A program made the translations under genes and the position numbers. Under the pieces are notes generated by a model. The model ran no database searches. It was not told the origin of the DNA and saw only the letters and a program-made list of their open reading frames with translations. A stretch of 64,000 bases of DNA from a phage. This document shows positions 20,733 through 31,355 of this stretch, piece after piece; positions within the stretch are counted from its first letter, which is position 1, and every line of letters starts with the position of its first letter. The DNA lies in sequence record PX880100.1; one strand, given 5' to 3'.

Positions 20733-20804
20733 GCCGTCCTAGTATAATTGGTATTATCAAGCCGTAACTGGTGGAAGATGTAGGTTCGAATCCTACGGTC
20801 GGTA
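20733..20804 (+). ncRNA. tRNA-like element (canonical T-arm, anticodon arm unresolved)
   Basis: GTAGG-TTCGAAT-CCTAC T-arm and 6/7 acceptor pairing; no clean anticodon stem. Confidence 0.3.
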
Positions 20805-21306
20805 AGAACTGGATAACTGATGCTTTTAACGTAAAAGCTTCCGAGGTTAGTTGCGCACTGCCTAAACCACGCGGTAGTTGGTTCCAGACTAACCAACCAG
20901 TCTGCTGAATAGTTTTATTACGATTTAACTATGTCCAGGCTAAAGAAGAACTTTAGAAGGTATTCTAGGATAGTGAAGTTCTTTCTCCACATCGGAGTAG
21001 TTTTTCAAGCTATCCACAAAGTGGGAAATGCTGACATGAGAGATGTCACTAATGGTGCACAATAGCACAGGTAATTCGCGATAATTCCTGTTGAGTAGCA
21101 GCAAAAGGCGGGAAGTCATGACCCCAAGCCTAACCGAGTCCTCAATATACCGCAGGACATAACCACTAAGTCACCCTGACTTAAACTGGAAAATAATAGA
21201 CGTTACTGTATTTTGTCTTGAAATACTTAATGAGTGAGACTTATGACTCTCCCGGTATCGTCTGTATTTTTAAGAGTTTTTACGAGAGTTCTTAAAAATA
21301 CTTAAA

Positions 21307-21381
21307 CGGGGTGTAGTCTAAGGGAGAGGCAGGAGTCTTCTAAATTCCTTTATGCAGGTTCGAATCCTGTCACCTCGGCCA
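21307..21381 (+). tRNA. tRNA-Arg (anticodon UCU)
   Basis: Hand-folded cloverleaf; T-loop TTCGAAT; encoded CCA. Confidence 0.65.
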
Positions 21382-21415
21382 ATTTTATTAACTGTAACTA
21401 AAACAAAGGAAATAT

Positions 21416-22363
21416 ATGTTTAATACTAAAAATATGAAAGAACTGACTTCTGAGCAGAAAGTAATTCGTACTATTAAACGTTGGGGGATTGGTGCTGTAG
21501 TTGGTTTAGCAGGTTTAGTTCTAGCTCTTAACTCCTATACCGTTGTTCAAGACGGTACTGTTAAGACCCAGACTTTCTTGGGTAAAGTTGATCCTAATCC
21601 AGTATTACCTGGTTTCCATGTTGTAAATCCTTTTGCTTCTTTTGATACTTTTAGTACTAAAGATATTGCTCTAAAATTAGATAAACTTCAGGTTCCTAGT
21701 CAGGATAAGTTTAAATCCACTGTTGACCTGACTGTTATGTTGCAGTTTGATGGTTCTAAAGCACCGATTAACCGTATTAATGCAGGTAATCAGGATCAAG
21801 CGTTAGACAAATATGTAACTGAAAAATTACTGTCTACTATTCGTGAGTTTGGTAAGTCTGTACCTAAAGCACAAGATTTATTTGATGCTAAAATTCAGGC
21901 TCAATTGCAAACTGCAATTCAACAGGAAGTTGAAGAGTATGCACGCCCATATGGTTACACAGTTAAGCAGGTGTTCCTTCAGGATATTACTTTGCCACCG
22001 GTAATCATGGAACAGGTACAGAATACCAAAGTTCGTGAAGAACAGGTTAATGCTGCTAAAGCTGAATTAGCTCGTGTTGAACAGGAAGCACAGCAAAAAG
22101 TTAAACAAGCAGAAGCAGATCGTGAAGCTCGCAACAACCAAGCTATTGCTAATGAACGTGACGCAGATGCTAAACTGTACGCAGCTAAGAAAGAAGCTGA
22201 AGCTAACGCCGCATTGCAACGTACCATTACTCCTGAGATGATTCGCTGGAAGCAACTGGAAGTTGAAATGATCCGTGCTCAGAAGTATCAAGGTGGTGTA
22301 CCACAGACGGTAGTTGGTACTGGTTATGATGGCCAAATGATCATGGATATGCGTAATAAATAA
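21416..22363 (+). CDS. SPFH/band-7 domain membrane protein (prohibitin/HflC-like)
   Basis: N-terminal TM helix; SPFH-like core; long coiled-coil C-terminus. Confidence 0.6.
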   Translation: MFNTKNMKELTSEQKVIRTIKRWGIGAVVGLAGLVLALNSYTVVQDGTVKTQTFLGKVDPNPVLPGFHVVNPFASFDTFSTKDIALKLDKLQVPSQDKFKSTVDLTVMLQFDGSKAPINRINAGNQDQALDKYVTEKLLSTIREFGKSVPKAQDLFDAKIQAQLQTAIQQEVEEYARPYGYTVKQVFLQDITLPPVIMEQVQNTKVREEQVNAAKAELARVEQEAQQKVKQAEADREARNNQAIANERDADAKLYAAKKEAEANAALQRTITPEMIRWKQLEVEMIRAQKYQGGVPQTVVGTGYDGQMIMDMRNK

Positions 22364-22387
22364 TACCCGCATGTAACATCTGAAGTA

Positions 22388-22421
22388 AGCCCTGCGTTTC
22401 CTGGAGAGCGCAGGGCTTTTC
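22388..22421 (+). terminator. Rho-independent terminator
   Basis: AAGCCCTGCG...CGCAGGGCTT hairpin then TTTT. Confidence 0.6.
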
Positions 22422-22459
22422 TATATAATGTAATTATAAAACTAACTAGGAGATTAAAC

Positions 22460-22978
22460 ATGGGTGTTGATGAATTAACACAGCATCTTCTATCTAGAGG
22501 ATTTGATGCAGATAAATATCATTGCTGGTTAAGTCCGGAAGGATGGCTAACAGTCCCGTTGTATGATTTCTCTGGGATGTTGAGGGGCTATCAAACTTAT
22601 AATCCTTCTGCTCCAAAAGGTCATGGTAAGTATCCCTTTGAAGCTAAATATTTTACCTATTCTACTACCCAGTGTGTATGGGGATTAGAAACTCTCAATG
22701 GAGATGAAAAAGTAGTATTGATCGCTGAATCTGTATTTAAGGCAGTTGCGTTACATAACGCTGGTTATCCAGCCCTAGCAATGTTGGGTTCTTCTCCAGG
22801 AAAAGCGTTATTAAAGCAACTGAAATTATTACCTTTTAAATTGGTAGCTGTCGGGGATAACGATCCTGCGGGTGAAAAATTTGCTAGAAAATTAAACGGC
22901 TTTGTTTCTCCTGTAGATGTGGATGAGATGTCTACCGAAAACTTGAAAAATTTTCTTGCTATGAAGCTAAATTTCTAA
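22460..22978 (+). CDS. hypothetical protein, possible Toprim-like fold
   Basis: IAES and GDNDPAG acidic motifs resemble Toprim. Confidence 0.4.
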   Translation: MGVDELTQHLLSRGFDADKYHCWLSPEGWLTVPLYDFSGMLRGYQTYNPSAPKGHGKYPFEAKYFTYSTTQCVWGLETLNGDEKVVLIAESVFKAVALHNAGYPALAMLGSSPGKALLKQLKLLPFKLVAVGDNDPAGEKFARKLNGFVSPVDVDEMSTENLKNFLAMKLNF

Positions 22979-22999
22979 TATAATATATCTTATAAATTC

Positions 23000-23088
23000 G
23001 GAAGAATAGCATAACGGTATTGCAGCAGATTGCTAATCTGTCGGTTTGAAATATAGCCTTGTGGGTTCGATTCCCACTTCTTCCGCCA
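23000..23088 (+). tRNA. tRNA-Ser (anticodon GCU), long variable arm
   Basis: Perfect acceptor stem; T-arm GTGGG-TTCGATT-CCCAC; encoded CCA. Confidence 0.7.
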
Positions 23089-23094
23089 AATTCT

Positions 23095-23172
23095 GGTTCT
23101 CAAGCTCATATGGTATGAGCACCCAGCTCATAACTGGAAGGTACGTAGGTTCGAATCCTCGGGGAGCCACCA
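23095..23172 (+). tRNA. tRNA with CAU anticodon (Met/fMet/Ile2)
   Basis: Acceptor GGTTCTC/GGGAGCC; anticodon loop CTCATAA; weak T-stem. Confidence 0.5.
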
Positions 23173-23390
23173 ACTTAATTAGGGGATTACAAGTGGAATT
23201 ATACATAGTTTATGTTGTGTTTATTCAAGATAGAGAATACCCTGATGAATATAAAAAAGGATATAGGTTAGCCAGAGCTACCTCTGAAGTCCAAGCTATG
23301 GATAAAGTGGCAGATTATATGATTACGGTAGAAAACGTACACTATATCGACTACCTTGAGGCCTCAAAAGTAATTGACTAAGGAGACTAT

Positions 23391-23576
23391 ATGTCCAAGT
23401 TTCAAGAACTCAAGCAAGAGCTAGAAGAATGTGCCTGCCCTGAGTGTAGGGGAATTGGTGAAAGTTCTGATGCAGAAGCAGGAGATACTTTTTGCAATAT
23501 CTGGGTTTGCCCAAATTGCAATGGTACAGGTATTAATCCTAACTGTGGTATTTCTCTAGATATTGAAAGAGGGTAA
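23391..23576 (+). CDS. small zinc-ribbon protein
   Basis: CPECRG...CPNCNG paired CxxC. Confidence 0.45.
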   Translation: MSKFQELKQELEECACPECRGIGESSDAEAGDTFCNIWVCPNCNGTGINPNCGISLDIERG

Positions 23577-23677
23577 TATCTGTGAAACTAAAAGATTATT
23601 ATATTGGTTGGTTTGTGGGACTAGTAGTAGGATTTTCACTAGGCTATAATATGTATCAACTAATAAACTGATTACAC

Positions 23678-23754
23678 GGGGGTGTAATCGAATTGGCATA
23701 GGTACTGGACTTAAAATTCAGGTTTTGTGGGTTCGAATCCCACCACCCCTACCA
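23678..23754 (+). tRNA. tRNA, anticodon UAA (Leu-type) with short variable arm
   Basis: Acceptor GGGGGTG/CACCCCT; T-arm GTGGG-TTCGAAT-CCCAC; loop CTTAAAA. Confidence 0.5.
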
Positions 23755-23769
23755 AATTAAGGAAATAAG

Positions 23770-23937
23770 ATGTATAGACCTCCACCTCCGCCAACACGTC
23801 GTTCTAGAGAAGTTATCCTCATGGAATTGACTAAAAACTTCAAGGCAACTCTTGAAGATAGAGATTTAGGCACGGATGAAGACATTGATTTTATTTGTAG
23901 ACTATTAAAGATGAAACTGGAGAAACAACATGGCTAA
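23770..23937 (+). CDS. hypothetical small proline-rich protein (55 aa)
   Basis: Hand-translated; AAGGAAA upstream; stop overlaps next ATG. Confidence 0.4.
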   Translation: MYRPPPPPTRRSREVILMELTKNFKATLEDRDLGTDEDIDFICRLLKMKLEKQHG

Positions 23938-24136
23938 TCCTGAAATTACCGCACAACGTTTCATGCTTAAAGGCATGATTGCTGAAGCAGGTATGACTCA
24001 AGAGGTTGCAGACTTTCATAAGCAAATTCTTGATATTATAACTCTAGCTAAAGAGACTGGAGAAAAAGAGCACGCAGCAGCAATTATGGCTATATCTCTT
24101 ATTAGTCTAGACTTGGCTGAAGAATCTGGAGTTTAG
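23930..24136 (+). CDS. hypothetical protein
   Basis: ORF track. Confidence 0.4.
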   Translation: MANPEITAQRFMLKGMIAEAGMTQEVADFHKQILDIITLAKETGEKEHAAAIMAISLISLDLAEESGV

Positions 24137-24226
24137 CTCCTCCAAATAGAATTTTTAAAAATGTACTTGCCTTTTGCTTTAAATTTCTGATATAATAGTT
24201 ATATAAATTGATGAAGGAGTTAACTA

Positions 24227-24502
24227 ATGCAAAATCGTGTTATAGCAACTGGTATTGAAAGTGCAATCTGTAAATCCTGGGAAGGCTGGGAAGGTGAGAT
24301 TGAATGGCTTTATTTCTATGATGTAGAACTTCTGCCGGAAGTTAAAGCTAAATGTGTTGAAGCTGGAATGGCTCCAGATGCAAAAGCTGATATTGATATT
24401 TCAATGTCTGAACTTAAAGGCCGTGTAATTACTGTTAGTGATGAGGGTGAAGAAGTTTTCGAACTTCCATTCTCCTTAACTGTCACTCCTAAGTTCGACT
24501 AA
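24227..24502 (+). CDS. hypothetical protein
   Basis: ORF track; promoter cassette and AAGGAG upstream. Confidence 0.45.
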   Translation: MQNRVIATGIESAICKSWEGWEGEIEWLYFYDVELLPEVKAKCVEAGMAPDAKADIDISMSELKGRVITVSDEGEEVFELPFSLTVTPKFD

Positions 24503-24584
24503 CTAATACAGCACTGAGCAAGTTCTTTAAAATTTGACTTGCTCAGTGCCTTAAAACTTGGTATAATAGTTATCTAATTTGGAA

Positions 24585-24634
24585 ACATATTTAAAAGTGT
24601 TTAAACTAGTATTTGAATACTTTTAAATATGTTG
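24585..24634. repeat. perfect palindrome, 15-bp arms (AACATATTTAAAAGT / ACTTTTAAATATGTT)
   Basis: Read directly; between promoter and tRNA-Tyr. Confidence 0.8.
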
Positions 24635-24735
24635 GATTAGTATCGTAGAGGTAGCGAAGCAGACTGTAAATCTGCCGACTCGGAAGGGTCTCGGGTGGTT
24701 CGACTCCATCATCCATCATCCATCATCCAACACCA
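24631..24735 (+). tRNA. tRNA-Tyr (anticodon GUA) with 14-nt heptamer expansion before the 3' acceptor strand
   Basis: Anticodon stem GCAGA/TCTGC; T-arm GGTGG-TTCGACT-CCATC; ATCCATC x2 inserted before ATCCAAC-A-CCA. Confidence 0.5.
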
Positions 24736-24742
24736 AATTTAA

Positions 24743-24819
24743 GTCCTGTTAGACAAACTGGTAAAGTCACTACCCTTTCAAGGTAGGATTTGCGGGTTCG
24801 ATCCCCGCACAGGACGCCA
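24743..24819 (+). tRNA. tRNA-Glu (anticodon UUC)
   Basis: Perfect acceptor and anticodon stems; T-arm GCGGG-TTCGATC-CCCGC; CCA. Confidence 0.7.
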
Positions 24820-24827
24820 ATTTCTGC

Positions 24828-24904
24828 ATTCCTAGAGTGTTACTGGACAGCATGTCGGTCTCCAAAATCGTACGGTCTAGGTTCGAGTCCTAGTAGGTTT
24901 GCCA
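24828..24904 (+). tRNA. tRNA-Trp (anticodon CCA)
   Basis: T-arm CTAGG-TTCGAGT-CCTAG; loop CTCCAAA; acceptor has two U-U mismatches. Confidence 0.5.
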
Positions 24905-24910
24905 AAATTT

Positions 24911-24985
24911 GCACCTTTAGCTGAGATGGATTAGCGCTTGCCTGAAGAGCTTGAGAGGTTCGTTCGATACGAACAGGGTGCACCA
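24911..24985 (+). tRNA. tRNA-Phe (anticodon GAA)
   Basis: Acceptor GCACCTT/AGGGTGC; T-arm GTTCG-TTCGATA-CGAAC; anticodon stem imperfect. Confidence 0.5.
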
Positions 24986-25002
24986 AATTGAGGGGGCTGC
25001 TG

Positions 25003-25275
25003 ATGCATCCTGAAAACTTCTTTATTTACTGCGCTGATAAGTCGCTGAAACGTAGAATTAACAAAGTCTATCATTATCGTGCTAGTCAACAGCCTTATGT
25101 ATATGCTTTTGACGGTGATCACATTCCATTAGAACAATTATCTTGTGATTACATGATATTGAAGAACTTTGACGAGACAAAGATCTCAAGCGTTCATAAT
25201 CGACAGAATCCCTTAACGTGGAAATATAAGAAGAAAAAGAAAGGCATCAAATTCTTAAAAAATGTAGTTGCTTAG
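25003..25275 (+). CDS. hypothetical protein
   Basis: Track ORF trimmed to first ATG after GAGGGGG, clear of tRNA-Phe. Confidence 0.4.
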   Translation: MHPENFFIYCADKSLKRRINKVYHYRASQQPYVYAFDGDHIPLEQLSCDYMILKNFDETKISSVHNRQNPLTWKYKKKKKGIKFLKNVVA

Positions 25276-25307
25276 TTTCCAAAAGTTCTGTATAATAATT
25301 ACATAAA

Positions 25308-25550
25308 TTGAACTGGAGAAGCAACATGACAGAACAAGAATTGAATGAACGTAAGCTGGTAATGCTCCGCTTACTAAACATTTTCTCTGGTATGGATGGG
25401 GGTATTGACTTTGTTCATCTACGTTCTTTTGTAGAAGAAGCAGAAGGTGAATCTATCACTAAAATCCTTAAACATATGGGTTTACTATTAGATGCTGCTG
25501 GTGTAGCAACGGAATATAACCTCGAAGATCTACCGGAGCGTATTAAATGA
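25308..25550 (+). CDS. hypothetical protein
   Basis: ORF track; promoter cassette and GGAGAAG upstream. Confidence 0.45.
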   Translation: MNWRSNMTEQELNERKLVMLRLLNIFSGMDGGIDFVHLRSFVEEAEGESITKILKHMGLLLDAAGVATEYNLEDLPERIK

Positions 25551-25735
25551 AGAAGCCAAAAGCTAAATTAGTTAAGTTCGACTGTTGTGACACAGAAATC
25601 TTATTCACTAAGTTTGGTGAATTTAAGATGTGTGAATGTGGAACATGTGGTTATGATCATGGTGATGGATATTATTGCAGGACTCTTGGACCAGCAAATC
25701 TAATCCACTTTTCATGGCCGGAAGATAAAGAATAA
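25547..25735 (+). CDS. small Cys-rich protein
   Basis: CC..., CECGTCGYDHGDGYYC; overlapping start. Confidence 0.4.
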   Translation: MKKPKAKLVKFDCCDTEILFTKFGEFKMCECGTCGYDHGDGYYCRTLGPANLIHFSWPEDKE

Positions 25736-25737
25736 TT

Positions 25738-25812
25738 GCATCCTTGTCCGAGTGGCTTAGGTGACGGTCTGCAAAATCGTCTAGGTTGGTTCAATTCCAG
25801 CAGGGTGCTCCA
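25738..25812 (+). tRNA. tRNA-Cys (anticodon GCA)
   Basis: Acceptor GCATCCT/AGGGTGC; loop CTGCAAA; T-arm GTTGG-TTCAATT-CCAGC; weak D-stem. Confidence 0.55.
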
Positions 25813-25818
25813 AATTCA

Positions 25819-25901
25819 GGGTCGTTAGCCAAGCGGTTTGGCGGTGGACTGTTAATCCATGTCGAAAGACAACGTAGGTTCGAATCCTACACGGCCCGCC
25901 A
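25819..25901 (+). tRNA. tRNA, anticodon GUU (Asn-type) with 13-nt variable arm
   Basis: Good D-stem and anticodon stem; T-arm GTAGG-TTCGAAT-CCTAC; CCA. Confidence 0.55.
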
Positions 25902-26003
25902 AATTCTGTGTAGAGTTAAGTAAACCGGTAGCCAACCAGCTATCATTGCTGACATCGAATTCAGCCACAGATACCATTTTCATTAATAACTGAGGAAACA
26001 AGC

Positions 26004-26189
26004 ATGTCCAAGAATGTAATTGCGCAGCTAGAAGTTCATCGTGATAGCACTATCAACAATATTGAAGTTGAGAAGAAATACATCGAAGAACTTAAACATG
26101 ATATACTAGTAAGTCTCAACCGTCTTAATGTACGAAAAGAGTTTCTTAAAGAACTTAATGCAGCTATTGAAAAACTCAAAGCTGAGTAA
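26004..26189 (+). CDS. hypothetical protein
   Basis: ORF track; GAGGAAA upstream. Confidence 0.4.
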   Translation: MSKNVIAQLEVHRDSTINNIEVEKKYIEELKHDILVSLNRLNVRKEFLKELNAAIEKLKAE

Positions 26190-26198
26190 ATGAATTAT

Positions 26199-26275
26199 GC
26201 GACCGGGGCTGGCTTGGTAATGGTACTCCCCTGTCACGGGAGGGAATGTGGGTTCAAATCCCATCGGTCGCGCCA
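26199..26275 (+). tRNA. tRNA-Asp (anticodon GUC)
   Basis: Perfect acceptor and anticodon stems; T-loop TTCAAAT; CCA. Confidence 0.7.
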
Positions 26276-26292
26276 AATAAGGTAGGTTAGCT

Positions 26293-26451
26293 ATGGAACG
26301 TAGAGAGTTTACTCCAGAAGAGATAGAGCAGATAAAAGAATCTGCTACGAAAAATGCTAGAATATCTCTGTCACTAGAAGGTATCATTATTAGTGATGTA
26401 AACTTTGAAAAAATCAAAGCCATAGCTGATGAACTGGAAAAAGTAATTTAA
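26293..26451 (+). CDS. hypothetical small protein (52 aa)
   Basis: Hand-translated between tRNA-Asp and tRNA-Lys. Confidence 0.35.
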   Translation: MERREFTPEEIEQIKESATKNARISLSLEGIIISDVNFEKIKAIADELEKVI

Positions 26452-26452
26452 T

Positions 26453-26528
26453 ACATCCATAGCTCAATGGTTAGAGCTACCGCCTCTTAAGCGGAGGGTT
26501 CTAGGTTCAAGTCCTAGTGGGTGTACCA
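26453..26528 (+). tRNA. tRNA-Lys (anticodon CUU)
   Basis: Canonical D-arm TAGCTCAATGGTTAGAGC; T-arm CTAGG-TTCAAGT-CCTAG; CCA. Confidence 0.7.
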
Positions 26529-26554
26529 AACTAAACTAGCACGAGAAATATACT

Positions 26555-26902
26555 ATGCGTAATGCTAAAGAAGAGTTGTTACTTGCCTTAAAAAATACTA
26601 ATTCTGAAGTTAAGTGTATTAAAATAGAATTCGGGTATTATGGGGACAAAAAAGTTTGGGTATTACCTCTGGGGTATACAGAAGAAGATATTGGGGATTT
26701 TCTTAATAACCTAGACTTTGAGTATGATTCTGGTTATGGTGGACAACTACTTTATGGTAATGTATGGTTTGCCGATGGAACCTGGCTAGAACGTGGGGAA
26801 TATGATGGAGCTGAGTGGTGGGAATACAAGGCTACTCCAGCAATTCCAGAGGAATGCCGAACAATTAATGGTGAAGTAGATAATACTTTAAGGTTAAACT
26901 AA
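26555..26902 (+). CDS. hypothetical protein
   Basis: ORF track. Confidence 0.45.
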   Translation: MRNAKEELLLALKNTNSEVKCIKIEFGYYGDKKVWVLPLGYTEEDIGDFLNNLDFEYDSGYGGQLLYGNVWFADGTWLERGEYDGAEWWEYKATPAIPEECRTINGEVDNTLRLN

Positions 26903-27295
26903 TAAAATTTCAGTGCAGAACACGGAGCTAGCAATTCGGAAGTGCTGACTCATGATAAGCTGCCTATGTACTTGCAAAGCGGTCGTGTCCAAGACTCGGA
27001 CTCTTGCACTGAAAACAATCAAACATTCTAGCGTGGTTGATGGGGAAACCAGCTTGGCTAGGGCAGAAGCTCGTTCGATTCGAGTGAAAGAATGGTTCTC
27101 GTAAGTCCGCACAAGTGATAATAGGTTCGAGTCCTGTCTAGAATGACACTATAAAGTTTACTTATTATGTAGGTTCCGATAGATCGGCGGGTCTATTCTG
27201 GCATTTAAGAGAGGTCTCGCAAACTTCTTTGTCAGCCGTGGGGTTGGTAGCCTCCAGGTGGCCTACACAATAAGTAAATTTATTAAAAATTCATT

Positions 27296-27324
27296 TGCTA
27301 TTTCTCTTAATTATCTGTATAATA
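27296..27324 (+). promoter_or_regulatory. N25-like early promoter driving tRNA-Pro/tRNA-CAU
   Basis: TTGCTA-17 bp-TATAAT; followed by SD plus ATG with only 3 codons, then tRNAs. Confidence 0.6.
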
Positions 27325-27518
27325 TATTTTATAAAGTGAAGAGAAGGAAAGCAAAATGAAACACAAGATAGCTCAAGTTTTTATGGCATTATGGTGTATG
27401 CCAATAGCTATAACAGCATTTAATCTAGATACTTTTACTATAGAAGAAAAATGTATCGGATTAGTTAGTGGCTTTAGTATGCTTGGCTTATCTTTGTTGT
27501 GGTTGAAGAAATAATATT

Positions 27519-27596
27519 CTCCGTGTAGCTCAGTTTGGCCAGAGCGTTTCGTTTGGGGCGATAGGGTCGGGGGTTCAAATCCTCCCACGGAGACCA
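27519..27596 (+). tRNA. tRNA-Pro (anticodon UGG)
   Basis: Acceptor CTCCGTG/CACGGAG; D-arm GCTC...GAGC; T-loop TTCAAAT; CCA. Confidence 0.6.
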
Positions 27597-27602
27597 AACA
27601 AT

Positions 27603-27680
27603 TGCGGGTTAGATCTCTGGTAGAGATCGCTAGTCTCATAAGCTAGAAAGAGGTAGGTTCGATTCCTGCACCCGCTTCCA
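27603..27680 (+). tRNA. tRNA with CAU anticodon (Met/fMet/Ile2)
   Basis: D-stem GATC/GATC; anticodon stem CTAGT/GCTAG; T-loop TTCGATT; CCA. Confidence 0.6.
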
Positions 27681-27700
27681 TTTTAATAGAGGATTTCGAA

Positions 27701-27868
27701 ATGAAAGTATTTCGATTAGTAGTAAGTGACAAACGCTTAGGTAAGAATACATCAAAATCCTTACTTGCTCATTATGGTAGAAATTGGGATGAAGTAATGG
27801 CAGAGTTTAGTACTAATCACTCTTACTTGAAAGTTCACTCTATTAAAGAAGTATACAATGGTTACTAA
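27701..27868 (+). CDS. hypothetical small protein (55 aa)
   Basis: Hand-translated; SD-like upstream; ends 2 nt before tRNA-Lys. Confidence 0.4.
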   Translation: MKVFRLVVSDKRLGKNTSKSLLAHYGRNWDEVMAEFSTNHSYLKVHSIKEVYNGY

Positions 27869-27869
27869 T

Positions 27870-27948
27870 AGATCGCTAGCTCAATAGGTTTAGTAGCATC
27901 CGACTTTTAATCGGAAGGTTCTGGGTTCAAGTCCCAGGCGATCTACCA
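27870..27948 (+). tRNA. tRNA-Lys (anticodon UUU)
   Basis: Perfect acceptor AGATCGC/GCGATCT; anticodon stem TCCGA/TCGGA; T-loop TTCAAGT; CCA. Confidence 0.7.
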
Positions 27949-27952
27949 ATTT

Positions 27953-28026
27953 GCTCGGTTAGTTTAATGGGAGAACCCCGTCTTTACATGGCGGTTGAGA
28001 TAGTTCGATTCTATCACCGGGTACCA
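27953..28026 (+). tRNA. tRNA-Val (anticodon UAC)
   Basis: T-arm GATAG-TTCGATT-CTATC; anticodon stem CCGTC/GGCGG; CCA. Confidence 0.65.
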
Positions 28027-28045
28027 ATTAACTCAAAATAAGGAA

Positions 28046-28405
28046 TTGCAAATGCAATTATCAAGCAAGATTCAAGGTTATTTCGGTCATGTGACAATGG
28101 AGTTCGCTATCTCTAAAGGTTGGGACTTCGAACAAGATTTAGCTGAGTTCTACAAAGATATTGATCTGAACGTACCGTACATGGGACTTTCTACTGGTCA
28201 GGAGATCACAGAAGCCGATGTATTCAAGGCAAGTCAAGGTGAGGTAACACCTAGTTTTGCCGAGTTCTGGTTAGGCATTACGTTAAAAGAAGATGCACCA
28301 GATAGTGGTGTACTAATGTCTAGTATGCACTCTGGAAGTTCCGATTACCTTTTCATTAGCGATGTTAAGGAAATACAAGAAGTCTGCAAAAATGTACTTG
28401 CTTGA
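28046..28405 (+). CDS. hypothetical protein
   Basis: ORF track; AAGGAAT upstream. Confidence 0.45.
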   Translation: MQMQLSSKIQGYFGHVTMEFAISKGWDFEQDLAEFYKDIDLNVPYMGLSTGQEITEADVFKASQGEVTPSFAEFWLGITLKEDAPDSGVLMSSMHSGSSDYLFISDVKEIQEVCKNVLA

Positions 28406-28664
28406 TGCTTAATTTCTTGTTATAATATTTATATAAATTGATGAGGAGAAATCCTCATCATAGTTCACTAAGGTATTAGCTCGACCTAGGACTGGCTGCC
28501 AAAAAGCACGATCCCTACGATTCGGGAGAAGTTCTAGATTGGTCCACTAGATTCAGCGGCAACTGAATAGTGTATTGGGTTTGCGAGATGACGTAGTTCC
28601 TTCCGCTCTAAGCGAAGGTGCTGTAGTTACGCCGAGCTAATAGCCTTAGTAAACTAAAGAATTT

Positions 28665-28743
28665 GGGGAATGGGTCTGCATGGAGTGGACACCTCGCTTG
28701 CACCGAGGACATCAGAACGGTTCGATTCCGTTATTCTCCACCA
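28665..28743 (+). tRNA. tRNA-Ala (anticodon UGC)
   Basis: Anticodon stem CCTCG/CGAGG; T-arm AACGG-TTCGATT-CCGTT; CCA. Confidence 0.65.
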
Positions 28744-28748
28744 AATAC

Positions 28749-28825
28749 GCGTGATTGATGGAATTGGCATACATACCGTCCTTAGAAGTCGGGTTTTGAG
28801 GGTTCGAATCCCTTGTCACGCACCA
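28749..28825 (+). tRNA. tRNA, anticodon UAG (Leu-type) with short variable arm
   Basis: Perfect acceptor GCGTGAT/GTCACGC; T-loop TTCGAAT; loop CTTAGAA. Confidence 0.5.
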
Positions 28826-28937
28826 AATTTGATGGTCAGAGTAAATTAAACCTACTATCTCGGTTGAGCTGTTTTAATGGGTTCGAATCCCAGCGAGGCG
28901 TAACTGCCTGGTGTGATAGAGGCATCATCTTATTATT

Positions 28938-29028
28938 GGAAGAGCAAATCGAATTGGCGACGAAAACCGCTTGGAAAGTGGCTGACTGGTAAAACGGCTT
29001 GAGAGTTCAAATCTCTCCTCTTCCGCCA
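28938..29028 (+). tRNA. tRNA-Ser (anticodon GGA), class II
   Basis: Perfect acceptor GGAAGAG/CTCTTCC; T-arm GAGAG-TTCAAAT-CTCTC; long variable arm; CCA. Confidence 0.6.
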
Positions 29029-29040
29029 AACAATTTATAT

Positions 29041-29135
29041 GGTAGGTCAATCCAATGGCTGGCGTGGGACTCCGACTTGAAATCGGTTGATCGTAGTGAT
29101 ACGGTGTAAGGGTTCGATCCCCTTACCTACCTCCA
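29041..29135 (+). tRNA. tRNA-Ser (anticodon UGA), class II
   Basis: Perfect acceptor GGTAGGT/ACCTACC; T-arm AAGGG-TTCGATC-CCCTT; 20-nt variable arm; CCA. Confidence 0.6.
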
Positions 29136-29501
29136 AATCTTGAAGTATGCCGGAATCGGTAGACGGGGCTGCCTAAAAGGTTTATAGGGAACATCCACTC
29201 CCTGCAACATACCCCATAAAGCGGCTGAGATAAATGGTCTATCTCGTGAAGGTTCAAGTCCTTCTGCTTCTTGATACATCAATGGCTCAAAGTGTAACGG
29301 CGCTATTTGATGCGCTTAGTAAGACTTCCCCGACATGCGTTCGGGAGTAAGCTGCTAAGGCTAGAGTAGAAGAGTTTCTGAGAGCCGCCACAATTGAAGA
29401 TTCGTACTCGTCTTGAGCTGCGTGCAATAGGAGATAACTTGATTAGTATTCTAGAACATGCTAATTGAGGAAGGTTTCGCTAACCCTGCGAGTTTTCAAT
29501 T

Positions 29502-29578
29502 GTGGCTATATCATAATTGGTTAATGATCCTGATTGTGAATCAGGCCTATGTGGATTCGAATTCCACTAGCCACCCCA
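29502..29578 (+). tRNA. tRNA-His (anticodon GUG)
   Basis: Perfect acceptor and anticodon stems; T-arm GTGGA-TTCGAAT-TCCAC; CCA. Confidence 0.7.
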
Positions 29579-29603
29579 AATTAACTTAAATAGGAAATAA
29601 AAT

Positions 29604-29798
29604 ATGGCTGATTTCTGCAAACAATGCTCCATTGATATGTGGGGCAGAGATACTGGTGATCTTTCTGGTTTGATTACAGAAGCTGAAGTTAAAGAAGGCT
29701 ACGGTGCTGTTGTGATTTGCGAGGGATGCGGAGTTATTCGAGTAGATCATGAAGGCAAACGTTTGGAAGAATCTGAGCCAACAACAATTTTTCCGTAG
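29604..29798 (+). CDS. small zinc-ribbon protein
   Basis: CKQC...CEGC; AGGAAAT upstream. Confidence 0.45.
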   Translation: MADFCKQCSIDMWGRDTGDLSGLITEAEVKEGYGAVVICEGCGVIRVDHEGKRLEESEPTTIFP

Positions 29799-29810
29799 AA
29801 TAAAAATTAT

Positions 29811-29886
29811 TGGGATGTAGATCAATTGGCAGATCGTCGGCCTCTGACTCCGAAGGCTCCACGTTCGATCCGTGGCATCCCAGCCA
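29811..29886 (+). tRNA. tRNA-Gln (anticodon CUG)
   Basis: Perfect acceptor TGGGATG/CATCCCA; D-stem GATC/GATC; T-arm CCACG-TTCGATC-CGTGG; CCA. Confidence 0.65.
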
Positions 29887-29892
29887 AATAAT

Positions 29893-29968
29893 TGGAGAGT
29901 AGTGTAACGGTTAGCACAACGGCCTTTGACTCCGTTAATGGTAGGTTCGATTCCTCCTTCTCCAGCCA
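29893..29968 (+). tRNA. tRNA-Gln (anticodon UUG)
   Basis: Paralogous anticodon arm to previous tRNA; T-loop TTCGATT; CCA. Confidence 0.6.
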
Positions 29969-29976
29969 AATAATAA

Positions 29977-30052
29977 GCGGTTAAGCACACGGGTTGTGTC
30001 GCAGGCCTTCCAAGCCTCGCTGAGTAGGGTTCGATTCCCTCTAGCCGCTCCA
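29977..30052 (+). tRNA. tRNA-Gly (anticodon UCC)
   Basis: Acceptor GCGGTTA/TAGCCGC; loop CTTCCAA; T-loop TTCGATT; CCA. Confidence 0.55.
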
Positions 30053-30068
30053 ACTTTAAGGGGACATT

Positions 30069-30290
30069 ATGCACGTTTTTGAGTTTCGTAATAAAAGTAC
30101 CGATAAACGAGTTATTGTTATCGGGGAAACATACCGAGCATACGAACAAACTGACGGCTCTGTTATCCTGAATGACGAAAAAGGAGGTTTTAGCTTTTAT
30201 CCCAAAGAAACTTACGAAGAATTTCGTACAAAGTTTCTTCTACCAGACTGGCTAGAAGTAGCGCAGCAACGAGAACCCGAAGATGGCTGA
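30069..30290 (+). CDS. hypothetical protein
   Basis: ORF track; SD-like AAGGGGA upstream. Confidence 0.45.
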   Translation: MHVFEFRNKSTDKRVIVIGETYRAYEQTDGSVILNDEKGGFSFYPKETYEEFRTKFLLPDWLEVAQQREPEDG

Positions 30291-30447
30291 TAACCTAAAA
30301 GTCAAGATCGATAAACAAAAGAAACGTGTCGAAGTAGAGATTGGTGAAGAACGTGTAGCCTTCACCTTTGAATTTCTACAACAAATGGCAATGACAGTTA
30401 TGACTGATAAGTCTCCTGTTATTGAAAAAGAAATCCCGTTGAAATAA
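30283..30447 (+). CDS. hypothetical small protein (54 aa)
   Basis: Hand-translated; ATG overlaps upstream stop (ATGGCTGA). Confidence 0.35.
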   Translation: MADNLKVKIDKQKKRVEVEIGEERVAFTFEFLQQMAMTVMTDKSPVIEKEIPLK

Positions 30448-30456
30448 CGGGCTATC

Positions 30457-30531
30457 GCTCCTAAAGCATTGTTGGCGATGCAGTTGCCTTGTAAGCATCT
30501 GAACCGGGTTCGATTCCTGGTGGGAGCACCA
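30457..30531 (+). tRNA. tRNA-Thr (anticodon UGU)
   Basis: D-stem GCAT/ATGC; T-arm CCGGG-TTCGATT-CCTGG; CCA. Confidence 0.6.
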
Positions 30532-30546
30532 AATTTAAAAATTCAT

Positions 30547-30575
30547 TTGCTTTCTCTCTTATTTCTTGTTATAAT
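30547..30575 (+). promoter_or_regulatory. N25-like early promoter
   Basis: TTGCTT-17 bp-TATAAT, then ATAAATTAATGAGAGGG. Confidence 0.65.
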
Positions 30576-30605
30576 ATTTATATAAATTAATGAGAGGGAA
30601 GCCAA

Positions 30606-30899
30606 ATGAAACGTTATCTTTCTGTTGTGTTCCAAACTGGTGGTCAGCGCTATACTTACGAATTTCCTGGCTCTTGGAAAGTCAAAGAAGGTGATCAAGT
30701 AGTTGTATTAACACCGCGTGACGGGTATAAGGTAGTAACGGTTAAGCAAGTATTTTCAAAAGACTATGAACCGTCTAAGTCTATTAACTATAAGATGATT
30801 CATGGTGTAGTTCGTCAAGTACCACGAGCGGAAGTCGAAATCAAAGTAGATAAAGATGATAAACTTAAATATACCTCTTGCATAGACGAGTTGCTATAA
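30606..30899 (+). CDS. hypothetical protein
   Basis: ORF track; promoter and SD upstream. Confidence 0.5.
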   Translation: MKRYLSVVFQTGGQRYTYEFPGSWKVKEGDQVVVLTPRDGYKVVTVKQVFSKDYEPSKSINYKMIHGVVRQVPRAEVEIKVDKDDKLKYTSCIDELL

Positions 30900-31105
30900 T
30901 GAGGATTACTTTTACAGAAAAGATTATGAGTAATGGTGTTATGATCATTACCGCATGGGACAGTAATCAGTGGTGTAGTGTTTCAGGTATTAAGCCTGAA
31001 GAACAAACACTAGAAAATATCTCAAAGATTAAGCGAAGAATGGCAGAACGTGCACGACTTCCAGGTGCACCTAGAAATGGCAAACGTTCTGCTGTGAAAT
31101 GTTAA
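30878..31105 (+). CDS. hypothetical protein
   Basis: ORF track; start uncertain. Confidence 0.35.
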   Translation: MHRRVAIMRITFTEKIMSNGVMIITAWDSNQWCSVSGIKPEEQTLENISKIKRRMAERARLPGAPRNGKRSAVKC

Positions 31106-31106
31106 T

Positions 31107-31183
31107 GCTTCGGTAGCTTAGCGATCTAAAGCACTCGGCTGATAACCGAGAGATCGGGGGTTTAAATCCCTCCCGGAGTACCA
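31107..31183 (+). tRNA. tRNA-Ile (anticodon GAU)
   Basis: Perfect anticodon stem CTCGG/CCGAG; T-loop TTTAAAT; CCA. Confidence 0.6.
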
Positions 31184-31279
31184 AATTTAGGAATTAAGAC
31201 TATGCGTCCAGGAAAGTTTAGAAAAGCTAATTGGTCTAAAGAGTATAAAGAATACTTACTTAGTCTAGTAAAACATAAC

Positions 31280-31355
31280 AGTTAGTTGGCAGAGTGGTTA
31301 TGCACCTCCTTCATACGGAGCGACTACAGTGGTTCAAATCCACTACTAACTACCA
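31280..31355 (+). tRNA. tRNA with CAU anticodon (Met/fMet/Ile2)
   Basis: Perfect acceptor AGTTAGT/ACTAACT; T-arm AGTGG-TTCAAAT-CCACT; CCA. Confidence 0.6.

Follow-up and report, generated by a model that had tools for sequence, protein, structure and literature searches.

Two tRNA-Leu genes that lack the long variable (V) arm and a tRNA-Asn gene that carries a stem-loop V arm are present in the tRNA gene cluster of a T5-like (AKFV33-type) phage (sequence record PX880100.1), of which a stretch of 64,000 nucleotides, here called the window, was analysed. According to textbooks and reviews, the long V arm of bacteria is limited to the Leu, Ser and Tyr tRNAs (plus Sec), and bacterial tRNA-Leu is nearly all type II (PMC6614811). 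Phages and mobile tRNA arrays depart from both V-arm rules, and the pattern matches the rules of synthetase recognition: loss of the arm is confined to Leu, whose synthetase ignores it, and does not extend to Ser or Tyr, and gain is seen where identity resides in the anticodon and position 73 (Asn). The three genes have tRNA structure, are conserved with compensatory changes, retain the known determinants and are widely distributed. All known features read by the host enzymes are kept and both designs are widespread, which argues that the genes most likely encode functional tRNAs of a kind that has been little described. They are probably genuine, functional elongator tRNAs that are charged by the host LeuRS and AsnRS according to their anticodons and decode UUR, CUN and AAY; aminoacylation and translational use are what we infer from these features. 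The genes and their V regions are located as follows.

20733..31355, + strand: T5-type tRNA gene cluster (24 ARAGORN tRNAs and 2 Rfam-only matches)
23678..23754, + strand: type I tRNA-Leu(UAA), CCA encoded (ARAGORN, 77 nt including CCA; Rfam, 57.4 bits)
23722..23726, + strand: 5-nt V loop GUUUU of tRNA-Leu(UAA) (parsed ARAGORN structure)
25819..25901, + strand: tRNA-Asn(GUU) with class-II-like V arm, CCA encoded (ARAGORN, 83 nt; Rfam, 59.0 bits)
25861..25873, + strand: 13-nt V arm of tRNA-Asn(GUU), GUCGAAAGACAAC (parsed ARAGORN structure; RNAfold)
28749..28825, + strand: type I tRNA-Leu(UAG), CCA encoded (ARAGORN, 77 nt; Rfam, 47.5 bits)
28793..28797, + strand: 5-nt V loop GUUUU of tRNA-Leu(UAG) (parsed ARAGORN structure)

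Small ORFs are interspersed in the cluster, and all genes are on the + strand. The cluster is syntenic with those of AKFV33, which is 99.2% identical to the window over 6.2 kb, and of T5; T5-type early promoters are annotated in the syntenic tRNA region of both records. The tRNA-Tyr neighbouring the three genes looks degenerate. In the other 16 class I isotype tRNAs of the window the V region is 4-7 nt long, and in the Ser and Tyr tRNAs it is 18-20 nt long, so that only Leu(UAA), Leu(UAG) and Asn(GUU) are class-discordant. The same three are the sole UUR, CUN and AAY tRNAs that ARAGORN finds in this phage.

All three have a 7-bp acceptor stem and D, anticodon and T arms (RF00005, ARAGORN), and the tRNA tertiary nucleotides U8, A14, G18G19 and U33 and the T loop GGTTCGAATCC can be read from the sequences and alignments. 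Rfam RF00005, with a gathering score of 29, matches each of them over its full length and places the anticodon loops at CUUAAAA for Leu(UAA), CUGUUAA for Asn(GUU) and CUUAGAA for Leu(UAG). In the AKFV33 GenBank record, annotated with tRNAscan-SE, the same genes are tRNA-Leu, tRNA-Asn and tRNA-Leu. A preliminary description, based on folding by hand, had proposed type I tRNA-Leu for UAA and UAG and a stem-loop V arm for the GUU tRNA; ARAGORN reproduces this architecture at exactly the same coordinates. The description had allowed that predictors might shift the anticodon loops and restore the standard classes. None of the predictors moves an anticodon loop, and because the three, which are independent, agree on the anticodons, this possibility falls away.

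The long V arm, the hallmark of class II, is absent from both tRNA-Leu, in which the V region is 5 nt. The D arm consists of a 3-bp stem and an 11-nt loop spanning positions 13-22, GAAUUGGCAUA, equal in length to the E. coli sequences GAAAUUGGUAGA and GAAUCGGUAGA, and like the V loop the D arm is the same in the two genes. When they are aligned with E. coli leuZ and leuW, A14, A15, G18, G19 and A73 are invariant. Both genes end in ...A-CCA, which gives A73; A20a is kept, positions 13 and 22 form a non-Watson-Crick G13.A22 as in class II, and the last base of the V loop is U48, so that an A15:U48 Levitt pair is possible. The anticodon stem of Leu(UAG) has a U30.U40 mismatch, and position 37 is A in this tRNA versus G in E. 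coli leuW. An MFE cloverleaf was not obtained for either Leu sequence (z = -1.2 and -1.4). The two tRNAs may be regarded as class II tRNA-Leu cores after loss of the long arm, with the 3-bp D stem, the unpaired 13:22, A14, A15:U48, G18G19, A20a and A73 retained. Such a loss would be tolerable since the arm is not read by LeuRS of bacteria: the determinants of the E. coli enzyme are A73, A15-U48, G18G19 and A20a, the V arm is not one of them, and arm-less variants are active (PMC9976931).

The V region of Asn(GUU), at 13 nt, is not a class I loop of 4-5 nt; it is a stem-loop of the class II kind (at least 10 nt), in which GUC and GAC pair as a 3-bp stem topped by a GAAA tetraloop (25861-25870), with AAC following. 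The RNAfold MFE structure is a five-arm cloverleaf that includes this stem and loop (z = -2.3). G34, U35, U36 and the discriminator G73 are kept, and the anticodon stem-loop, GGACUGUUAAUCC, is identical to that of E. coli asnT. The first pair is G1-C72, not the U1-A72 common in bacterial tRNA-Asn. The D stem has 4 bp with A13-U22, and G13.A22 is found in relatives such as X20, SB9, ESCO13 and Roth01. G2:C71 and G73 of the window gene are both SerRS determinants as well. The gene could be described as a tRNA-Asn whose variable region acquired a small hairpin with a GNRA cap while GUU and G73 were kept. AsnRS reads the anticodon and G73, not the V arm, and these four nucleotides suffice to transplant Asn identity. 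The preliminary description had supposed that identity elements differ from those of the host. This was not borne out, as the LeuRS set (A73, A14, A15:U48, G18G19, A20a) and the AsnRS set (GUU, G73) are present in full.

Both designs, at first treated as a peculiarity of a single genome, turned out to be widespread across phages and tRNA arrays in the surveys and homologue counts. The surveys, which are based on ARAGORN, favour sequences folding as tRNAs, and the sequences are related, so that the counts do not equal independent events. In an IMG/VR sample about one third of phage tRNA-Leu is without the long arm, compared with about 1-3% of Ser and Tyr. The short:long counts in 94 viral loci are 45:84 for Leu, 1:82 for Ser and 1:32 for Tyr. 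Loss of the arm in Leu alone fits the expectation if LeuRS is the one synthetase that tolerates it. As in long-arm Leu, the 69 unique short-arm Leu sequences have A73 (67/69), A14A15 (60/69) and U48 (65/69); the combined Leu signature occurs in 74% of them versus 7% of 1289 other class I tRNAs. A Watson-Crick 13:22 pair is found in 3/133 short-arm and 4/211 long-arm Leu.

For long-arm tRNA-Asn the surveys yielded about 160 distinct sequences, from phages and from tRNA arrays of bacteria. Their V hairpins are conserved and comprise 72 distinct stem strands; of the 144 unique V regions, 87.5% can pair over at least 3 bp, versus 57.6% of shuffles (maximum, 68.8%). The V stems have 3-4 bp, like those of Leu and Tyr, and Ser has mostly 5-7 bp; a GNRA cap is present in 49% of the long-arm Asn V arms versus 1% for Tyr. 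The core is shifted towards class II, with Watson-Crick 13:22 in 30% of long-arm versus 72% of short-arm Asn. G73 is present in 140/159, and U1-A72 is as frequent in long-arm (116/162) as in short Asn (125/172); Tyr has G1-C72. The 2:71 pair in the family is GC in 9, CG in 7, AU in 4 and UA in 1. A tRNA-Ser identity of the window gene is not supported by the 3-bp stem; G2:C71 is present but not conserved in the family. Against an anticodon-shifted tRNA-Tyr (GUA to GUU) speak G73, U1-A72 in most relatives and the difference in GNRA caps. No published description of a long-arm tRNA-Asn was found in the literature.

Identical copies of Leu(UAA) occur in at least 292 phage records, and copies at 95% identity or more in 325. 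At this identity the short allele of Leu(UAG) is found in 162 records versus 52 for the T5 type, and the long allele of Asn in 269 versus 132; the designs of the window are the majority alleles in T5-like phages. The corresponding T5 alleles, tRNA-Leu1(UAG) of 85 nt and class II and tRNA-Asn(GUU) of 78 nt and class I, are of the opposite class. They have the same syntenic positions and anticodons but different sequences and adjoin homing-endonuclease genes, and the anticodon stem of T5 Asn is diverged, whereas that of the window is host-identical. Full-length homologues of Leu(UAG), 84-88% identical, are present in PVP-SE1 and in Mooglevirus/Felixounavirus phages. The differences between near homologues are almost all compensatory: at 2:71, 4:69 and 50:64 between the window and PVP-SE1 for Leu(UAG), and at 5:68 and 50:64, together with a paired insertion in the V stem, between the window and Proteus phage 2 for Asn. 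The V stems of the Asn homologues are GUUC/GAAC, AUCC/GGAU, GUCA/UGAC and GAGU/ACUC. Both designs are probably ancient tRNA lineages that phages and tRNA arrays share horizontally, rather than local accidents.

Other explanations were weighed against charging and use in translation. The remodelled tRNAs might not be used in translation at all; they could instead sequester host tRNA-targeting nucleases as uncharged decoys or competitive inhibitors, or be decaying pseudogenes. The MFE folds of the Leu sequences that are not cloverleaves, the U.U mismatch in the Leu(UAG) anticodon stem, the failure of E. coli LeuRS on a foreign type I tRNALeu and the degenerate look of the neighbouring tRNA-Tyr speak for this. 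It is nevertheless unlikely: a decoy has no need of A73, A15:U48, A20a or G73, all of which are retained by divergent copies in their hundreds, compensatory changes occur in all four or five stems, CCA is encoded, the covariance model scores are 47-59 bits and the genes are the phage's only UUR, CUN and AAY tRNAs. The foreign tRNA in question is the type I tRNALeu(CAA) from Streptomyces coelicolor, which the E. coli enzyme left uncharged in vitro (PMC6614811), and this is a caveat that counts against Leu charging in the preferred reading.

A switch of identity, in which the GUU tRNA is charged by SerRS (or TyrRS or LeuRS) or the arm-less UAA and UAG tRNAs by a non-Leu enzyme, with deliberate or ambiguous recoding of the codons, is more improbable still. 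G73, G2:C71, C11:G24 and the V hairpin of the window Asn do overlap the E. coli Ser identity set, and nev-tRNAs are a precedent for V-arm tRNAs with anticodon and charging at odds (PMC3333845). However, G2:C71 varies among the long-arm Asn tRNAs, whose V stems are shorter than those of most Ser tRNAs, and G73 excludes LeuRS and TyrRS, as both enzymes require A73. No part of the AsnRS set is missing, most members show their Asn lineage by U1-A72, and the Leu tRNAs hold all LeuRS determinants. We know of no synthetase other than LeuRS that reads a UAA or UAG anticodon. A prediction artefact, with anticodon loops put in the wrong place and ordinary class I or II tRNAs of other isotypes behind the three genes, has a practically negligible probability. 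Hand folding is error-prone and some relatives carry the labels 'tRNA-OTHER' or 'tRNA-Xle', but the predictors, with which this was tested, agree on boundaries as well as anticodons, and the 77- and 83-nt lengths allow no other class assignment.

The tRNA-Leu with a short V loop have known counterparts. The S. coelicolor tRNALeu(CAA) coexists with LeuRS and depends on A73 and A14 (Fan et al. 2019, PMC6614811). It is chromosomal and requires a LeuRS whose leucine-specific domain is adapted; the short Leu tRNAs of the phage have a D arm like that of E. coli and have to rely on the enterobacterial enzyme. Animal mitochondrial type I tRNALeu(UUR) is also identified by A73 and A14 (PMC9976931), but a mitochondrial LeuRS is dedicated to it and its structure is floppy and reduced, whereas the D and T loops of the phage tRNAs are canonical. 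Arm-less E. coli tRNALeu variants remain substrates of E. coli LeuRS provided that they preserve A73 and the D/T tertiary core (Larkin et al. 2002; Asahara 1993/1998; Tocchini-Valentini 2000; reviewed in PMC9976931); in phages the solution of these laboratory constructs is natural and frequent, with the same features retained. Like phage Asn, the nev-tRNAs of nematodes and the allo-tRNAs combine a V arm with anticodons of class I amino acids, but they bear the identity elements of Leu or Ser and receive the wrong amino acid, whereas phage Asn has the Asn set (G73, GUU, and U1-A72 in most relatives).

Why the V region was remodelled is a matter for speculation. T5 and SP15 tRNA-Tyr with a distinctive V loop resists Retron-Eco7 and Septu PtuAB (PMC12673091, PMC13096335, PMC11555353); a V region differing from that of the host decides the outcome against a nuclease that cuts the host tRNA V loop. 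These tRNA-Tyr are class II with a lengthened arm, unlike the Leu and Asn tRNAs of the window. This is a precedent for a counter-defence role, and selection of the V region for a shape differing from host tRNAs targeted by immune nucleases may tentatively be considered. It is similarly possible, though doubtful, that V-arm remodelling with synthetase recognition intact serves tRNAs of phages and mobile arrays generally as a counter-defence strategy. We know of no nuclease directed at the V arm of tRNA-Leu, nor of one that a V arm on tRNA-Asn blocks. If the idea is true, deletion of the Leu arm or grafting of the Asn hairpin would leave host immune nucleases and toxins that recognise tRNA shape (PARIS AriB, PtuAB of Septu/Retron-Eco7 and further ones still to be discovered) with a tRNA that they cut badly or that inhibits them. 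The findings point to the variable region as a second site, besides the anticodon loop, of phage-host tRNA divergence in the arms race with tRNA-cleaving defence. The help against PARIS by T5 tRNA-Asn and the suppressor action of T5 Leu1 belong to the canonical alleles, not to those of the window. BASEL phage Bas33 (HildyBeyeler), which has long-arm Asn, long-arm Thr(UGU) and both short Leu tRNAs, is viable, and this is indirect experimental support for working tRNAs; its escape from PARIS required only T5 tRNA-Lys (PMC12409363).

The remodelled tRNAs offer a natural test set for the tolerance of LeuRS, AsnRS, EF-Tu, the ribosome and modification enzymes, and may serve as compact orthogonal tRNA scaffolds. 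Isotype-specific tRNA models will mislabel such genes, to judge by the 'tRNA-OTHER' and 'Xle' annotations. The long-arm tRNA-Asn family, if the counter-defence idea is true, would form a new kind of 'class II' tRNA that is specific to mobile elements. The same GNRA-capped hairpin is found in relatives on Thr(UGU), Lys(UUU), Ile(UAU) and Met/Ile(CAU) tRNAs.

The window belongs to a T5-like phage (Demerecviridae, Tequintavirus) and is 99.2% identical over 23000-29200 to Escherichia phage vB_EcoS_AKFV33. It carries 24 tRNA genes at 21307-31355, every one on the + strand (ARAGORN), and two further matches to the Rfam tRNA model. Three of its tRNA genes, all with CCA encoded at the 3' end, have unusual variable (V) regions.

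tRNA genes with unusual V regions. Scores are for full-length matches to the Rfam tRNA model (gathering score 29 bits); anticodon loops are from Infernal and V regions from parsed ARAGORN structures.
23678-23754, + strand, tRNA-Leu(UAA): 57.4 bits; anticodon loop CUUAAAA; V region GUUUU
25819-25901, + strand, tRNA-Asn(GUU): 59.0 bits; anticodon loop CUGUUAA; V region GUCGAAAGACAAC
28749-28825, + strand, tRNA-Leu(UAG): 47.5 bits; anticodon loop CUUAGAA; V region GUUUU

RNAfold alone yields a five-arm cloverleaf for the Asn gene, with a GUC/GAC V stem and a GAAA cap, and the AKFV33 GenBank record (tRNAscan-SE) lists the same three genes as Leu, Asn and Leu. The unusual V arms of the two Leu genes and the Asn gene, noted in the preliminary description, are confirmed by ARAGORN, Rfam/Infernal, RNAfold (for Asn) and the AKFV33 annotation. 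The predictors place the anticodon loops exactly where they had been proposed, and a prediction artefact is excluded.

The accompanying proposal that the identity elements differ from those of the host is not supported: the known LeuRS and AsnRS determinants are present in the three genes. E. coli tRNA-Leu requires A15-U48, G18G19 and A20a, and it stays active when the variable arm is missing (PMC9976931). When the window Leu genes are aligned with E. coli leuZ and leuW and T5 Leu1, A14, A15, G18, G19 and A73 are invariant. In the same alignment the 3-bp D stem and the 11-nt 13-22 segment are of equal length (GAAUUGGCAUA in the window, GAAAUUGGUAGA in E. coli), and U48 is the final base of the 5-nt V loop. 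The retained determinants, the D-arm length and U48 mark both genes, at the level of sequence, as class II Leu cores minus the arm. Asn identity consists of the anticodon and G73 and, according to published work, can be transplanted into tRNA-Lys. Both GUU and G73 are present in the window Asn gene, which shares its entire anticodon stem-loop, GGACUGUUAAUCC, with E. coli asnT. Since the determinants are retained in the Leu and Asn genes, charging of all three tRNAs by host enzymes would be expected. A published result points the other way: the Streptomyces coelicolor type I tRNALeu(CAA) was not charged by E. coli LeuRS (PMC6614811). The anticodon stem of Leu(UAG) contains a U30.U40 mismatch (window 28778-28790), which is kept in the homologues of phages PVP-SE1 and Sf15, and the adjoining pair 29:41 covaries from G-C to A-U. 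The m1G37 of E. coli tRNA-Leu(UAG) is impossible in this tRNA because position 37 is A.

Salmonella phage PVP-SE1 (Vequintavirinae), Vibrio phage River4 and Pseudomonas phage ZC03 carry short genes (77-79 nt) that are annotated as tRNA-Leu, and in Shigella phage Sf15 (Mooglevirus) all three Leu tRNAs are of this kind. Long-arm tRNA-Asn of 83-86 nt are found in Proteus phage 2, Serratia phage X20, T4-like Klebsiella phages, Marfavirus Potts1, Phapecoctavirus ESCO13, PVP-SE1 and Epseptimavirus SB9, with the V stems GUC/GAC, GUUC/GAAC, AUCC/GGAU, GUCA/UGAC and GAGU/ACUC. Nearly all differences between close homologues are compensatory: between the window Asn and that of Proteus phage 2 the changes lie at 5:68 and 50:64, with a paired V-stem insertion as well, and the window Leu(UAG) differs from that of PVP-SE1 at 2:71, 4:69 and 50:64. 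With Leu(UAA) as BLAST query, 5,426 complete E. coli genomes gave no chromosomal match and only 23-nt T-arm matches on plasmids; the search is uninformative on ancestry.

IMG/VR and GTDB genomes were scanned with a pattern in which a GUU anticodon loop and the T arm downstream of it are widely spaced. The bacterial-genome matches listed lie mostly inside multi-tRNA arrays, together with short Leu and often long-arm Lys(UUU). In total, at least about 160 unique long-arm Asn(GUU) were gathered. G73 is present in 140 of 159. A V hairpin of at least 3 bp forms in 87.5% of 144 unique V regions, compared with 57.6% of shuffled sequences (maximum 68.8%), and 72 different stem strands occur. Watson-Crick pairing at 13:22 falls from 72% in short Asn to 30% in long-arm Asn, the class II pattern (Fisher p = 7e-15, for sequences that are related and not independent events). 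The short-arm Leu keep the class II 13:22 mismatch, and A73, A14A15 and U48 are as frequent in them as in long-arm Leu. An alignment of the long-arm family (A5) showed 100% pairing and double changes in all four V-stem pairs, but it is not relied upon because its sequences had been pre-selected for pairing in that register; the unbiased shuffle test replaces it.

Several ideas on origin and pattern failed. Isotypes could not be told apart by whole-body identity to the tRNAs of E. coli, T5 and the window, the best matches being 0.6-0.7 to unrelated isotypes, and identity-element tests were therefore used instead. A GUC/GAC V stem and an AGCGG D loop are also present in E. coli tRNA-Tyr, which suggested that the long-arm Asn might have arisen from tRNA-Tyr through a change of anticodon from GUA to GUU. 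This origin is rejected for the family, because U1-A72 is found in 72% of long-arm Asn (73% of ordinary tRNA-Asn; tRNA-Tyr has G1-C72), because G73 is the rule, and because a GNRA cap is present in 49% versus 1% in Tyr. The GNRA cap is not peculiar to the Asn arm, being equally common in Ser and Leu arms.

In scans without selection for arm class, the long arm was found in 9 of 120 viral Asn matches and the short arm in 24 of 113 viral Leu(UAA) matches. Among 94 viral loci holding five or more tRNAs each, short-to-long counts were 45:84 for Leu, 1:82 for Ser and 1:32 for Tyr. Because this skew is seen for Leu and not for Ser or Tyr, arm loss is specific to Leu, the sole class II isotype whose synthetase can do without the arm. 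Long V arms were weakly enriched among tRNAs for ANN codons, the PARIS target set (about 12% versus 5.5% in a biased first sample), and the enrichment was unclear in the 94 viral loci; as it is only weak, no claim is made.

Other unusual arms were met in these surveys. V arms of 20-27 nt are frequent on tRNA-Ile(UAU) in IMG/VR and GTDB loci (e.g. L141, L199 and L232; 7 of 20 in the class-agnostic sample). CAU-anticodon tRNAs and Lys(UUU) can bear long V arms too, often sharing arrays with long-arm Asn and short Leu. Verrucosispora/Micromonospora chromosomes (loci L140, L145 and L176) hold arrays of more than 30 tRNAs within 8 kb that include several type I Leu as well as Asn(GUU) whose 17-nt V arm has a 6-bp stem; thus the same two non-canonical designs occur in actinobacterial tRNA arrays. 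In PVP-SE1 an 86-nt 'tRNA-Lys(UUU)' (L247:1557-1642) has additional nucleotides separating its D and anticodon arms, and River4 has an 87-nt tRNA-Gly(UCC) with a GAAA-capped V hairpin (L249:3087-3173).

At the syntenic sites T5 has canonical alleles, an 85-nt class II Leu1(UAG) and a 78-nt class I Asn, and it lacks Leu(UAA), whose place is occupied by a homing-endonuclease gene. The window and T5 alleles are distinct sequences, not in-place deletions, and the window alleles are the commoner for all three genes.

Allele counts (INPHARED records at >= 95% identity).
Leu(UAA): window allele (short) 325; T5 allele none
Leu(UAG): window allele (short) 162; T5 allele 52
Asn: window allele (long arm) 269; T5 allele 132

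The alleles form a mosaic among the BASEL phages: Bas31 has T5-type alleles adjoining homing endonucleases, Bas32 has window-type alleles, and a third Asn allele, long-armed and 86 nt in length, is present in Bas33 and Bas29. Homing-endonuclease genes in Bas31 (locus L484, 10740-11258, 14409-14993 and 15844-16425) and T5 (locus L003, hegA-hegD) abut exactly the tRNAs that have alternative alleles, Asn, Leu(UAG) and Gln, which suggests cassette exchange driven by the endonucleases. No such gene lies within the tRNA cluster of the window.

A role of the three tRNAs as decoys or pseudogenes is improbable, because synthetase determinants are retained, evolution is compensatory and the three genes are the phage's only tRNAs for their codons. 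A switch of identity, with the V-arm GUU tRNA charged by SerRS for example, is less probable still: the V stems are shorter (3-4 bp) than most of those in Ser (5-7 bp), G2:C71 lacks conservation, and LeuRS and TyrRS are excluded by G73.

For remodelling of the V arm as counter-defence, phages of this very group offer a direct precedent. The variable loop is where Retron-Eco7 and Septu PtuAB cut host tRNA-Tyr, and the tRNA-Tyr of the T5-like phage SP15 resists through a distinctive variable loop, whose deletion or swap abolishes the effect (PMC12673091, PMC13096335). The PARIS nuclease AriB targets tRNA-Lys(UUU), Thr(UGU) and secondarily Asn(GUU), cuts between positions 40 and 41 and also reads distal features such as U16 (PMC12409363). 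The window Asn keeps the host cleavage-site sequence UAAUC|C and differs from host tRNA-Asn in C16 and the V hairpin. Bas33 has long-arm Asn and long-arm Thr(UGU) and lacks Lys(UUU), and T5 tRNA-Lys alone rescued it from PARIS (PMC12409363). This fits long-arm tRNAs that are functional and not limiting, but is no proof, because T4, which has no tRNA-Asn, was rescued likewise. Bas34, a PARIS-sensitive T5 relative, has its own tRNA-Asn, which did not suffice. By analogy with SP15, a counter-defence role of the remodelled arms is conceivable but tentative; the alternative is tolerated drift in lineages spreading through recombination and homing-endonuclease-driven exchange. An 87-nt tRNA-Thr(UGU), the isotype that is a prime AriB target, has a GUAA-capped V hairpin in the T5-like phages Bas33 HildyBeyeler (L483:16173-16259) and SESL (L001:10580-10666).

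Annotations of the three genes already stand in hundreds of records, and type I tRNA-Leu is a known kind, from mitochondria, S. coelicolor and engineered E. coli variants. The open-access literature yielded no description of type I tRNA-Leu in phages, whether as a frequent design or at all, and none of a long-arm tRNA-Asn family, which is weak evidence of novelty. For tRNA specialists the surprise is modest; the possible tie to tRNA-targeting immunity is experimentally approachable.

Other RNA features of the window deserve mention. In tRNA-Tyr(GUA) (24631-24729) the 7-nt unit CATCCAT is repeated three times across the 3' acceptor strand; acceptor pairing is poor, there is no clean CCA, the Rfam score is 32.6 bits, and in relatives the gene is labelled 'tRNA-Pseudo-GTA' or 'tRNA-OTHER'. 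One possibility is that the long-V-loop tRNA-Tyr guarding T5-like phages against Retron-Eco7 survives here as a decaying copy. The matches missed by ARAGORN lie at 23095-23169 (38.2 bits; anticodon CAU, the counterpart of T5 tRNA-Ile2(CAU), 'tRNA-Met' in AKFV33) and at 20733-20804 (35.5 bits), inside the region annotated in T5 as stable 'RNAX'. Isolated T-arm-like hairpins, UGGGUUCGAAUCCCA, with weak matches to the tmRNA model, lie between tRNA genes at 28878-28892 and 29001-29017 and may be tRNA-gene remnants or the tRNA-like stable RNAs described in T5. The 95-nt tRNA-Ser(UGA) (29041-29135) scores 35.4 bits on the tRNA-Sec model, below the threshold of 47 and better than it reached on the general tRNA model at the gathering threshold, and its D arm appears unusual.
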